Below, in pieces: positions 59,701-62,700 of a DNA stretch of 64,000 nucleotides; position 1 is the first letter of the stretch; each line of letters begins with the position of its first letter. Source of the stretch: Candidatus Aminicenantales bacterium (GTDB taxonomy: Bacteria > Acidobacteriota > Aminicenantia > Aminicenantales > UBA4085). The stretch covers positions 268,599-332,598 of the forward strand of contig JBEKTZ010000001.1 in the NCBI GenBank assembly GCA_049515535.1. The letters run 5' to 3'. Position numbers: made by a program.

Positions 59701-62700
59701 GCTCGCAAGTCATAAACCAGGAGATGTCTAAGGCTTTTCCGTAATCCCTCGCCCCGATAAACATCCGATAATCGCCCAGAGCGTCGTTTTCGACCATCAA
59801 ATAGCTTCGCTCGTTGCCCAAGATGCCCTTGAGCCAGCTCGGCCTGACCTTAACACGATCAAAAGTGATGCCCGGAGCTTGCATTTCTTTAACATTGGCT
59901 TCAGTATCCGTGTAAATCTGCTCTGCCAGACCCTGGGCATCCTCGACGATCATAGACCAGCGATCTATGATCTTCTCGTCTTTAAGCGTGATTTTTCCAA
60001 ACATAGGAGCCTCCTTTTTTAAGTTCTCGCTCGCCCGTTCCGTCCCCGAGCAAAAACAAAAAAGGGACGCCACCCTTTATATTGCTAATTTCTATGAATA
60101 CCTATTCCCATTGGCGCGGATTCTACAGGAAGCGATTATTAAAAGGCAAGGACTATTTCACTTGCTCGTTTTGGATAAAGATAAAGAGACTCGCTGCTCC
60201 ATAAAAGATAGTCTTCCTTCTTTCATAATAGACCTTTCCTCCCCATATATTTTTTCGTATAATACTCTTTATAATTATAATATTTACGGTATTTCTTCCG
60301 TAACTCCTCTTAAGCCATCACCATATATGTCGTCAATACTATAATTCCTCAACCCAGCAATTTCTTTAATTTCATCAATATGTTGATTGATTGTTGTTAT
60401 TAAATATTTTGTTAATTCGCAATAAACCCTTTTCTGGTCCACGGAATACTCCAAGAGGCATTTTCTGCATCGTCCCAAACAAATGTTTGTAACCTCGCAT
60501 TTCCTGCAATCCTCAAAAATATCCTCATGAGTTTCCTCAGGCATGTTTTGGGTGCCATTATTAATATTTCCCAGTATCCCCTTTTCCGATCCTATATACT
60601 CATCGCAAATATAAATACTGCCATCTAATCCGATCGCTTTGTAATGATTCGTCGTCCCGCAACGAAACGATTTTCCATTATTGTTATAATCAAAAACTAG
60701 AGAGGAAACTATGACCTGGAAAGGAATAATTTTGAGTATCTCGCCTTTCTTAAAATGATCTAACCACAAATCAAATAATTCAGATACACCCTTTTTATAA
60801 TTTACGATGAATTTTTCTTTGTTCTCGAAACTTGGCTTGTTGACGAGTTGCCAATATACAGCGTCGACTTCTTTTAGAATGTTGTTGGCTGAAGAATAAA
60901 TATCGGTTTCTTCTTCTACTGTTATTCTTCCGATCACCGTAGAATAAAGCTGCGGTTTCATCTTTTTAATATTGTCGATAATGACTTTATACGTTCCTTT
61001 TCCTCTGTATTTTTCATGTGCCTTTTGATCACCATCTAAGGATACGAGTATCACGTCCAAACTATTTAGCACTGAGAGCGGAACGCGATCAAGCAACAAT
61101 CCATTTGTATAGACGGCGAAAGAGGCATTTATTGGAGATAGCCTCCTAATGAACTCACCCATTATTTTTGGCTTAAGCAACGGCTCGCCGCCAAAAAATA
61201 CCACCCGGGTTTCTTCGTTTTTATCCTTTTCTTTTATAATATATTTAATTATTTCTTCGATTCGTTTTCTTGATAAATTAAGTTTTTGGTCATTCGATAA
61301 GACCTCTTTTGCTAAACAATACGTACAGCGCATATTGCAGTTATAAGTTAAAAAAATGTAATATTCCATATCTTATTGACTTTTTAAATTTATTTTCTTT
61401 TTGCTTGAGCCTCGATTCTTTGACGTGCTGGAGCTTGCCTCATACCAAATTCGTCCTTTTTATAATAATTATAAACTGTTACTTTTTGCCCGTGTCGTAT
61501 CTTATACTCGCCGATATCTAATAACTCGGCTGCCCCCCTAGTACCATTTCTCTTTGTTTCTTTCGCTAAATCTTCATGTACCAGAATCTGGTTTTTTCTC
61601 GCCAAACCCATCATTCGATTTGCCATGTTAATTCCAAATCCAAATAAGTTGTTACTTTCGTTCAAATCTACGTACCTGATGTTAGGACCTTTTGCAATTC
61701 CCATTCTTATCGGTATCTTTTTTTTGAGGAGCTCATTATATATATTCAGAGCCATGTCCAGAACGGCTGATGAATGGAAATCAAGCGGATTGAATCCTAT
61801 CGCGTACCCGTCCCCTGTTGGGATTAGAATTAAATGGTTGTGCTTATCTCTTTCATCCCAGTCATAATTACCATAAAGCAGAGAATTTAACACTTTTTCA
61901 ATCGCTTCAATAATTTCTTCCATTTTTTCATTTGTAGGTATTTTGGTGAATCCAACAACGTCAAAAAAAACAACAGTATTGCAAACAGGAAAATGTCTCG
62001 GGATTTTGCCTCTCACATAATCAAAAGGGTCCGTTTTAGTCGTCATATTTGCCTCCCCCAATCTAGAACACGTTACGTTCGCTCTCTTACTTCATGAAGT
62101 ATAGAAAAAATTAAATGGCTAGTCAAGGGCTTAAAAATGGCTTCAAAACGGTGGTGACCATAAATTCACCACAGCCAACGCTACTGCCTCGAACATCCGA
62201 ATAAAATAAAGGTTCTTTTGGACTTTCTCTTTCCCTAAATTGGGAGAGAGTGCAGGATACCGCCTCACAATCTCCTCGATCAGATTCTTTTTATTCAGCT
62301 TCCCGCCTTCGATAAGAGACTTCTCGATTTCTTTAATCGAATACTGACAGACCTTCAGGCCCTTTCGCCGCGCAACGTCTTTAATCTTTTTGGCTACTCT
62401 TAGTAACTTCCCCGTCCTCCTTGCGGGATGGAGTTTTTTAATTGCCAAGACGTTCGGCTGGTATCGGTCGATTATTTCGGAGACGATTCCGATAGCCTTC
62501 TTAATTTTCCCCTCCTTCCACTTCCCCGCCAGGACCTTGATTCCCCAGTCCATAAGCTCTTCGCCGTAGAGGATGGCGAAGCCAAGATATCTCGTTCCGG
62601 GATTAATCCCGATTATTCTTAGAGGTTCTTTTGTCATATCGTTTTAGTAGTCGTCGTATCGGTTTTAAATTATTAAAACCTTCCGTCCCGTTATTCTTGT

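Follow-up and report, generated by a model that had tools for sequence, protein, structure and literature searches.

A stand-alone nucleotidyl cyclase gene of the class III fold and a radical SAM/SPASM gene form a two-gene unit in the window, the 64,000-nucleotide stretch of a Candidatus Aminicenantales genome that was analysed (Table 1), and a census of related loci indicates that cyclases of this family are very probably functionally coupled to an iron enzyme encoded beside them. The best explanation, although one with less than an even chance, is a mobile two-gene immunity module in which the iron enzyme would hydroxylate an aminoalkyl group with or without O2, and the cyclase would use or sense the product. 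If true, nucleotide-signalling immunity would gain a class with an iron oxidase, and not an effector, as the cyclase's constant partner, and with separate oxygen-free and oxygen-using versions.

Table 1. Features of the two-gene unit and its surroundings, in window positions
Feature	Position	Strand	Basis or remark
comM C-terminal piece	53843..54331	-	Left island boundary; N-terminal piece at C1:353167-354216
TraG/VirD4-like ATPase gene	57253..59439	-	Island context, outside the module
Intrinsic-terminator-like hairpin and T run	60061..60078	-	Would end the two-gene unit; 4 found in the region versus 1.6 expected
22-codon ORF	60158..60226	-	Purine run resembling a ribosome site; no counterpart at other loci
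TIGR04084-like radical SAM/SPASM gene, 361 aa	60284-61369	-	Profile, fold, residues
Class III nucleotidyl-cyclase-fold gene, stand-alone, 218 aa	61390-62046	-	Pfam, fold, residues
Sigma-70-like promoter candidate	62098..62126	-	10/12 consensus matches, 17-nt spacer, ~50 nt upstream of the cyclase start
RuvC-like gene and two HTH genes	62143..63534	-	Upstream, island context

Both genes lie where the initial annotation had placed them, and its Pfam assignments hold as well, with Guanylate_cyc (E 8e-10) on the cyclase and Radical_SAM plus Fer4_12 on the second gene, as does the low GC content of both (0.374 for the cyclase gene and 0.355 for the radical SAM gene, versus 0.568 for the genome). 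The cyclase gene starts with an ATG preceded by a GGGGGAGG ribosome site, and 20 bp separate it from the radical SAM gene. The promoter candidate is argued for by position only, because the region has 7 such sites versus 7.5 by chance. The TraG/HerA-like ATPase gene, which had been described as adjoining the radical SAM gene, is separated from it by a gene of 174 aa. A RiPP precursor peptide beside the radical SAM gene was considered and rejected, given that none is conserved across module loci: small ORFs around 24 such loci, compared by eye, have nothing in common, and the spacer gave no BLAST match. The 22-codon ORF is probably not a precursor peptide. Repeats in the window's module are short and chance-like.

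The cyclase model (pLDDT 93.7) matches 3et6 with Z 19.8 and rmsd 2.1 over 171 aligned residues, and assignment to class III is further supported by a Foldseek E of 1e-11 and a PF00211 score above cut-off. D29, D79, N140 and R144 align with Rv1625c and 3et6, such that both metal-binding Asp residues and the transition-state Asn and Arg are present, and R184 is likewise kept. Adenylyl and guanylyl cyclases specify their base with the canonical pairs K/D(T) or E/C. Both pairs are absent from the window cyclase, and because I75 and N133 occupy those positions the substrate is not predictable from them; the same two residues are present in unpaired outgroup cyclases. A family-specific loop, W63...N70 in the window cyclase, occurs in 72 of 81 family proteins versus 5 of 108 outgroup proteins, and is retained in both catalytically dead TIR fusions. 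The window cyclase has no match in PADLOC (at E 0.01) or NCBIfam, and the cyclase at locus L037 matches no PADLOC family at E 0.001. The best 50 fold matches listed are adenylyl and guanylyl cyclases with no PycC or PucC entry among them; the window cyclase may all the same be related to these.

The radical SAM enzyme had been called anSME-like. Judged by profile comparison, it is instead a diverged relative of TIGR04084 (rSAM_AF0577), an archaeal family that is its best NCBIfam match and scores 205.9 bits over profile positions 1-347 of 347, below the family cut-off of 225 bits; the anSME profile TIGR03942 gives 100.8 bits versus a cut-off of 349. All 60 aligned homologues also match TIGR04084, and this kinship supplies the chief hint at what the enzyme does chemically. 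Its cysteines are C11/C15/C18 along with C237, C255, C288, C291, C297, C301 and C317, of which C288/C291/C297/C301 form the CxxCx5Cx3C motif of TIGR04084, and the E-x-I-P tail of that family (E358) is present too. R148, W173, Q174, P216 and E358 are common to the window enzyme and archaeal members, and active-site-type residues are invariant throughout the archaeal and cyclase-partner enzymes. The two groups nevertheless form separate clades (support 100), and the archaeal gene is single-copy without a fixed neighbour, whereas the partner genes are sporadic and tied to a cyclase.

The earlier fold claims are borne out by a model of the radical SAM enzyme (pLDDT 93.6), with matches to CteB (Z 31.7), anSME (Z 28.8) and ChlB (Z 28.4) versus Z 15-17 for viperin-like entries. 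The enzyme shares with these SPASM maturases its fold (Z 27-32, ~320 aligned residues) and its SPASM cysteines, but is only 20-22% identical to them and has no conserved precursor peptide. No sulfatase gene was recognised among 11 window neighbours scanned or, by eye, at 18 loci, and the genome as a whole was not searched for one. Like prokaryotic viperins, it would be a radical SAM enzyme in anti-phage defence; unlike them, it has no full-length viperin match, given that NF038283 scores 59.8 bits versus a cut-off of 180 and the PADLOC pVip match is partial, as noted before (residues 5-131 and 6-188 only).

The cyclase family was found at 43 loci, with a radical SAM gene beside it at 22, a gene for a His-Glu HEAT protein at 15 and both at none; the remaining six are truncated or at contig ends. 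About 16 of the 22 radical SAM loci are distinct, and the window adds one more. Where the cyclase gene is intact and the contig extends far enough either way, an iron partner is always present. The claim that the cyclase always directly precedes a radical SAM gene does not survive, given the different partner at 15 of the 43 loci and a reversed gene order at 2 of the 22. The starred branches of the tree require three or more changes of partner. At L035 the partner is the HEAT protein, though the cyclase lies inside the radical-SAM clade, and at L004 and L018 a main-clade cyclase (47-50% identical) stands in reversed order beside a radical SAM enzyme that is 25% identical. Fusion of HEAT protein and cyclase occurs at L047 and in P0189. 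In one cluster, P0184, the cyclase is fused to a ferritin-like domain, a call that at 21.5 bits is just below the Pfam cut-off of 22.8, and a PDB sequence search with P0184 gave no informative match. Seven longer proteins scanned from the 50% library have TIR, HEAT, ferritin-like or second cyclase domains; a search of longer proteins for a radical SAM-cyclase fusion gave P0167 only and no such fusion. A predicted complex of the two window proteins scored 0.00, which counts neither way.

These observations bear on the possibility that the two genes only travel together on mobile DNA, which is already disfavoured and very improbable. Some of the loci are closely related or almost duplicated, and radical SAM enzymes named from Moranbacteria, of the sort for which the earlier work had cyclase-less homologues, nest within the partner clade. 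However, the iron partner is present wherever the cyclase is intact and has enough sequence to either side, and the pairing survives order reversal, fusion and replacement while the other neighbours vary from locus to locus.

The HEAT partner, of ~175 aa, carries an invariant VRHE motif twice, with a spacing of 32 residues, in all 11 aligned rows, and its best natural PDB match is human deoxyhypusine hydroxylase, DOHH (E 8e-31, two stretches), with the motifs aligned to the iron-ligand His-Glu motifs of DOHH (PDB 4d4z) within HEAT repeats. DOHH carries four such motifs within one chain of ~300 aa, whereas the partner is half-size, bacterial and paired with a cyclase; presumably, it acts as a homodimer of half-DOHH chains. 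The window's own partner is a radical SAM enzyme unrelated to DOHH. The radical SAM and His-Glu HEAT enzymes are likely to be equivalent, and DOHH-like aminoalkyl chemistry by the iron enzyme is about an even call. No deoxyhypusine synthase was found in the window's genome (94% complete), and host deoxyhypusine therefore cannot be the bacterial substrate.

In the preferred module reading, the iron enzyme would first act like DOHH and oxidise an aminoalkyl chain of the 4-aminobutyl type (a polyamine, a polyamine conjugate or a lysine-like group) at a C-H bond. In its radical SAM/SPASM form it would need no O2: a 5'-deoxyadenosyl radical would abstract hydrogen, one-electron oxidation would follow via the auxiliary clusters, and water would then be captured. 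The His-Glu HEAT form would use O2 at a di-iron site, presumably in the dimer. The diffusible product would then bind to the family-specific Trp/acid/Asn loop of the dimeric cyclase, where it would serve as activator or co-substrate, and the cyclase, given its catalytic residues, is predicted to convert an NTP to a cyclic or conjugated nucleotide. The reaction may differ from ordinary cyclisation in HEAT-paired cyclases, where N140 is replaced by I or V in 13 of 13. In a few cases, seen as gene order, the nucleotide would fire a PycTM-type membrane effector; in a few others, seen as fusions, a catalytically dead domain copy would control a fused TIR/SEFIR domain.

An unlikely alternative is that the substrate of the iron enzyme is the cyclase protein, which would be modified at the invariant Trp63 or at the Lys/Arg184 hairpin that binds phosphate, either to switch it on or to keep it off as the enzymatic antitoxin of a two-gene toxin-antitoxin unit. 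Proteins or peptides are the substrates of the nearest folds (CteB, anSME, ChlB) and also of DOHH, and without a conserved precursor peptide the cyclase becomes the obvious protein substrate. W63 and N70 are invariant in 31 of 31 paired cyclases, and the unit, which lacks an effector, has promoter- and terminator-like sites of its own. Pairwise identities of cyclase and radical SAM enzyme correlate as well (r 0.75, 16 pairs, 0 of 2000 permutations), but this is expected from co-transfer alone. Moreover, one site would need to be recognised by three unrelated folds, partner replacement is frequent (L004/L018, L035), and the Lys-His-Gly hairpin occurs also in unpaired outgroup cyclases and has Arg in the window. 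The same hairpin was dropped as a mimic of IF5A because of its presence in outgroup cyclases and its variation in HEAT-paired ones. The functional link that the initial annotation proposed is far better supported than before, by 22 loci instead of four, a change of order and a swap of iron enzymes, whereas its radical SAM maturase of the cyclase is a possible but not the best reading, given a swap among unrelated folds and no invariant lysine specific to the cyclase family.

It is improbable, if attractive for the base pocket with neither K/D nor E/C, that the iron enzyme oxidises a nucleotide in the manner of viperin, acting on the NTP before cyclisation or the cNMP after it, to give a modified messenger or chain terminator beyond the reach of phage phosphodiesterases. 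A diffusible intermediate would explain the easy partner swaps, and a single viral contig (n=1) carries a TIGR04084-like gene (138 bits) amid thymidine hypermodification genes. Against this, the viperin-like Z scores are far from the 27-32 of SPASM maturases, pVip profiles cover the N-terminal 131-188 residues only, and unpaired outgroup cyclases also have I75 and N133. No action of DOHH-type proteins on nucleotides is known. Transfer of putrescine by that phage gene cluster is not indicated, because PF18723 there is listed as a 5-hmdU kinase helical domain. M6 gp53 was dropped as the phage homologue, because annotated phages gave no match save one unannotated record at 23%. For the radical SAM enzyme, annotated phages and plasmids gave no match. 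The cyclase has no match in plasmids and one marginal match in viral contigs, and its profile matches none of the viral loci scanned.

The module lies in an island of 30.2 kb (C1:322930-353166, GC 0.40) that interrupts a comM/Mg-chelatase gene and holds two serine recombinases, in agreement with the low-GC element reported earlier; no attachment-site repeat >8 nt was found at the comM junctions. The island is defence-rich, with further genes for ABC-3C, Ppl-like and Schlafen-helicase/MazG proteins. Neighbours at other loci include GmrSD, HNH, TIR and PycTM genes, and at L026, L029 and L030, all from one cyclase clade, a PycTM-like gene directly follows the radical SAM gene (E 1e-17 to 1e-18). 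The defence context claimed before thus stands, and the balance tips modestly toward a defence role for the module. Beside the window cyclase there is no PycTM or CNBD-TIR effector, and the unit would thus act in trans, or its product would itself be the weapon. A distinctly improbable alternative makes the partners sensors of metal, O2 or redox state that regulate an ordinary cyclase in physiological signalling, without substrate turnover. All three partner types bind iron, most loci lack a recognisable effector, and the module is rare and scattered (one family-level match in each of two 401-genome samples). This is at odds, however, with a SAM-binding cluster motif and residues of the substrate pocket that the radical SAM partners have in common with the single-copy archaeal family, and with the defence genes in the island and elsewhere.

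The stand-alone class III cyclase and the PycTM-like genes at three loci resemble Pycsar and Pucsar (PMC11224242; bioRxiv 10.64898/2026.08.12.744502). However, the window cyclase lacks a PycC profile match and the specificity residues published for Bc, Ea and An PycC, and its family is constantly accompanied by an iron enzyme; the words 'radical' and 'HEAT' are absent from the main text on Pucsar (bioRxiv 10.64898/2026.08.12.744502). The Ophion preprint describes an anti-phage radical SAM enzyme with PHP and PRTase partners and not a cyclase (bioRxiv 10.1101/2025.09.30.679545).

The two partner types also exclude each other in archaea. Among 201 archaeal genomes, TIGR04084 was found in 83, the His-Glu HEAT protein in 32 and both in none, versus 13.2 expected if independent, and in one class (61 genomes) the counts are 22, 11 and 0; kin share genes, such that these counts are not independent. 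Neither candidate is present in 86 of the 201 and 28 of the 61 genomes. A COX1-family haem-copper oxidase is encoded in 32 of 32 HEAT genomes versus 16 of 83 TIGR04084 genomes. Among bacterial hosts the oxygen link is weak, with a COX1-family match in 1 of 5 radical-SAM hosts and 2 of 4 HEAT hosts. Together, pairing and archaeal exclusion point to an undescribed defence chemistry.

Deoxyhypusine synthase was found in 199 of the 201 archaeal genomes. No archaeal DOHH has been identified, though several crenarchaea have hypusine (PMC5178350, PMC6105217), which is reported in Sulfolobus acidocaldarius, Pyrodictium and Thermoproteus, with deoxyhypusine in halobacteria and methanogens (PMC5178350). 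Thermococcales and Thermoplasmatales, too, are reported to have deoxyhypusine. Two single-gene candidates for the missing enzyme follow from the partner swap, TIGR04084 and a 162-aa half-DOHH. In a wider and doubtful hypothesis, TIGR04084-type enzymes would be O2-independent hydroxylases of N-linked aminobutyl chains, i.e. the missing DOHH of Sulfolobus, Thermoproteus and kin, with the half-size di-iron DOHH in that role in Nitrososphaeria-like lineages that are aerobic. Mobile elements of bacteria would have co-opted both, plus a ferritin-like enzyme, as suppliers of a cyclase, and the resulting immune pathway, a new one, would signal via a polyamine-derived ligand or polyamine-nucleotide conjugate. 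If true, hydroxylation of an unactivated aminobutyl carbon by a radical SAM enzyme without O2 would be new enzymology, and the question of the missing archaeal DOHH becomes directly testable. Inspection by eye of the 1.5 kb to either side of 30 TIGR04084 and 30 HEAT loci revealed no gene for deoxyhypusine synthase or IF5A, and none of 31 proteins co-purified with Sulfolobus aIF5A is annotated as radical SAM (PMC6105217, Table 2). Literature searches, covering mostly open papers, found nothing on TIGR04084 or oxygen-independent hypusination, nothing relevant by title on AF0577, and iron reviews on DOHH with radical SAM. Among 14 named control genomes, the one that exceeds the TIGR04084 cut-off is that of Sulfolobus acidocaldarius.

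The cyclase gene and the radical SAM gene lie in tandem on an island that interrupts comM (see table), and both are low in GC (0.374 and 0.355, respectively, vs. 0.568 for the genome). The initial annotation had described such a low-GC pair on a mobile island with two serine recombinases, and this observation is confirmed and extended; the island also carries an ABC-3C pair, a Ppl-like PHP-ATPase and a Schlafen helicase with MazG. Sections of PMC11472951 describe elements that bear defence genes and target comM. A profile search of 40 relatives of the host gave no TIGR04084 match, and a cyclase search of two samples of 401 genomes returned in each a single family-level match, the seed genome itself; two weaker matches were within 700-aa proteins. 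Three island ORFs with hydrophobic stretches have no match in Pfam, NCBIfam or PADLOC and are possible candidates for effectors acting in trans. Of three lower-GC genes immediately beyond the comM boundary, one begins like a lipoprotein gene.

Features of the two-gene unit, its island and related loci (plain numbers, window; C1, whole contig; L, locus)
Feature	Position	Strand	Remark
Cyclase ORF, 218 aa	61390-62046	minus	
Radical SAM ORF, 361 aa	60284-61369	minus	20 bp past cyclase ORF
Sigma-70-like site	about 50 nt before cyclase ORF		count of such sites at chance level
Terminator-like hairpin	about 200 nt after radical SAM ORF		
Island	C1:322930-353166		30.2 kb, GC 0.40
ABC-3C/PDC-M68 pair	C1:332401-335317		outside window (L001, L002)
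Ppl-like PHP-ATPase	C1:339927-342710		outside window (L001, L002)
Schlafen group 3 helicase, MazG-like gene	C1:347664-349887		outside window (L001, L002)
Three island ORFs	54870-57051		178, 216, 255 aa
Three lower-GC genes	51113-53394		300, 107, 327 aa
Gene after radical SAM	L023:2332-2961		
Viral cluster	L178/L268:2023-12050		
Viral gene pair	L221:4246-6086		

The 218-aa protein is predicted to adopt a class III cyclase fold (model pLDDT 93.7; Z 19.8 to 3et6), and in alignment the two metal-binding aspartates are retained, as is the Asn/Arg pair. Adenylyl and guanylyl cyclases canonically specify the base with a K/D or E/C pair; the window cyclase has Ile75 and Asn133 at these positions, with no PADLOC or NCBIfam match. 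It also differs from PycC of Pycsar in the specificity residues given in part of PMC11224242. The family is distinguished by a Trp63...Asn70 loop, which 72 of its 81 proteins have, vs. 5 of 108 in the outgroup. An acid lies near the Trp in 38 of 39 rows, and the two together would suit an amine-binding pocket.

The partner was initially called anSME-like, which suits its modelled fold (resembling CteB, anSME and ChlB; Z 27-32) but not its sequence, which is nearest to TIGR04084 at 205.9 bits across the entire profile (cut-off 225), vs. 101 for the anSME profile. All 60 aligned homologues match TIGR04084, and R148, W173, Q174, Y191, P216 and E358 are invariant in 26 archaeal, bacterial and unplaced members. 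The bacterial proteins form their own clade in the tree, apart from the archaeal members.

Although the radical SAM enzyme had been taken as the constant companion of the cyclase, a HEAT protein of about 175 aa takes its place in 15 of the 43 loci with a family-level cyclase (at least 159 bits; next score 108; 71 loci in the set). This HEAT partner is downstream in 11, upstream in three and fused in one, and the radical SAM gene adjoins the cyclase in 22 (20 downstream, two upstream); no locus has both and six have neither. The census was taken from the cyclase side, and its counts lean towards the clades from which the profiles were built, namely radical-SAM-side hits for the cyclase and the partners themselves for HEAT. 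Three of the six loci end within 75 bp (L003, L048, L049), and another contig of the L003 genome starts inside a radical SAM gene of this kind, with its C-terminal half; L041 has the apparent start of a HEAT partner, and in L032 and L033 an N-terminally truncated cyclase lies amid presumably transposase-like ORFs. Near duplicates removed, about 16 radical SAM and 12 HEAT loci are distinct. The 28 weaker loci include one HEAT gene (L067, a truncated family member) and 27 with neither partner. Indirect backing comes from 11 of 43 cyclase clusters whose longest contig equals in size that of a radical SAM cluster. That the genes merely travel together is judged highly improbable.

Two VRHE motifs, 32 residues apart, occur in all 11 aligned HEAT partners and align with the His-Glu motifs of deoxyhypusine hydroxylase (DOHH); designed repeat proteins aside, human DOHH is the best PDB match (E 8e-31, two stretches). 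DOHH is an O2-dependent di-iron enzyme. It hydroxylates the aminobutyl chain of deoxyhypusine, according to part of PMC5178350. Cluster P0184 combines the cyclase and a ferritin-like domain in one protein (Rubrerythrin, 21.5 bits, below the cut-off of 22.8). Starred branches in a tree of 47 cyclases, from which ten loci were omitted as duplicates or fragments, force at least three partner changes.

Repeated swapping of three unrelated iron folds on one cyclase family is more easily reconciled with a diffusible product common to them than with a co-evolved interface. The initial interpretation is partly supported: the functional pairing gains support, and modification of the cyclase protein by the iron enzyme is kept as a rather doubtful rival. 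The swaps and the putative Trp/acid pocket led us to favor aminoalkyl hydroxylation: the iron enzyme would hydroxylate an aminoalkyl chain, the product would activate or feed the cyclase, and the nucleotide would drive a PycTM or TIR effector or itself act. This chain as a whole is put forward tentatively. Counting against it, N140 is absent from HEAT-paired cyclases, an effector gene is seen in only three, mutually related loci, and the host genome lacks deoxyhypusine synthase. By eye, the gene after the radical SAM in L023 resembles a membrane effector with two helices, but it has no Pfam or PADLOC match. Clusters P0167 and P0182 are TIR/SEFIR fusions that have lost the first aspartate and kept the Trp loop; P0167 matches a bSEFIR defence profile over residues 7-264 (E 4e-75), and its C-terminus is a catalytically dead copy of the cyclase domain.

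In archaea, 201 genomes from the phylum of G001 (Nitrosopumilaceae) were sampled. TIGR04084 is present in 83, single copy save one gene in two pieces, and the His-Glu HEAT protein in 32 (E < 1e-20; about 162-175 aa with both motifs in all 30 inspected loci). No genome has both, against 13.2 expected under independence, which related genomes do not satisfy; of five weaker HEAT matches that were excluded, two come from 840-aa ORFs of TIGR04084 genomes. A COX1-family oxidase accompanies HEAT in 32 of 32 genomes vs. 16 of 83 for TIGR04084. A second sample of 61 genomes from one class, overlapping the first, has 22 with TIGR04084, 11 with HEAT and none with both (COX1 in 11 of 11 HEAT vs. 8 of 22 TIGR04084 genomes). 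In bacterial hosts the oxygen link is weak (COX1 in 1 of 5 radical SAM vs. 2 of 4 HEAT hosts). That the partners serve in metal or redox sensing is considered quite improbable. Among 14 named control genomes, only S. acidocaldarius passed the TIGR04084 cut-off, with Haloferax and two methanogens below it.

Eukaryotic parasites with an anaerobic life probably have TIGR04084 as well. An O2-free hydroxylase is needed for the hypusine of Pyrodictium and Thermoproteus, since both live without oxygen. Sections of PMC5178350 report that these two, S. acidocaldarius and Acidianus contain hypusine, that Euryarchaeota contain deoxyhypusine, and that no DOHH has been identified in archaea; section 21 of PMC6105217 calls the archaeal pathway unsolved, and part of PMC7909649 found no DOHH in Entamoeba and left the modification open. 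Archaeal TIGR04084 is a candidate oxygen-free deoxyhypusine hydroxylase, and the half-DOHH HEAT protein a candidate aIF5A hydroxylase of aerobic lineages. Against this, 86 of 201 genomes have neither gene while deoxyhypusine synthase is in 199, no deoxyhypusine synthase or IF5A gene was recognized by eye in the 1.5-kb flanks of either, and an aIF5A pull-down list includes no radical SAM. The archaeal TIGR04084 genes (L118-L147) lack a fixed neighbor; the HEAT protein (L148-L177; G001, G046 and others) is highly conserved, including a C-terminal tail ending Gly-Gly.

In the parts of the sources consulted, Pycsar and, per a preprint, Pucsar (bioRxiv 10.64898/2026.08.12.744502) pair cyclases with effectors, and viperins and Ophion (bioRxiv 10.1101/2025.09.30.679545) are radical SAMs without a cyclase. 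A literature search of incomplete coverage found no paper on a cyclase-iron enzyme pairing or TIGR04084 function; we regard the module as undescribed and its mechanism as a proposal.

One viral contig (L178/L268) encodes a TIGR04084-like radical SAM (138 bits, same key residues) within a thymidine hypermodification cluster that also holds parts of a 5-hmdU kinase, a homologue of thymidylate synthase, an amino acid:DNA transferase, DNA polymerase A and ligase. According to part of PMC8989533, clusters of this kind modify thymine side chains that bear amines, and this one may make an undescribed base. This single case fits either oxidation of the nucleotide by the iron enzyme, an unlikely rival, or aminoalkyl hydroxylation. 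On a large viral contig (L221), a methyltransferase-like gene precedes a TIGR04084-like radical SAM (156 bits). On six viral contigs (L258-L263) the His-Glu HEAT profile matches short ORFs at 63-71 bits, and several of these lie near genes labeled by eye as terminase- and portal-like. Within the same broad clade as the family cyclases, more distant ones (L071, L072) lie amid short genes that look, by eye, like TIR/ThsB.
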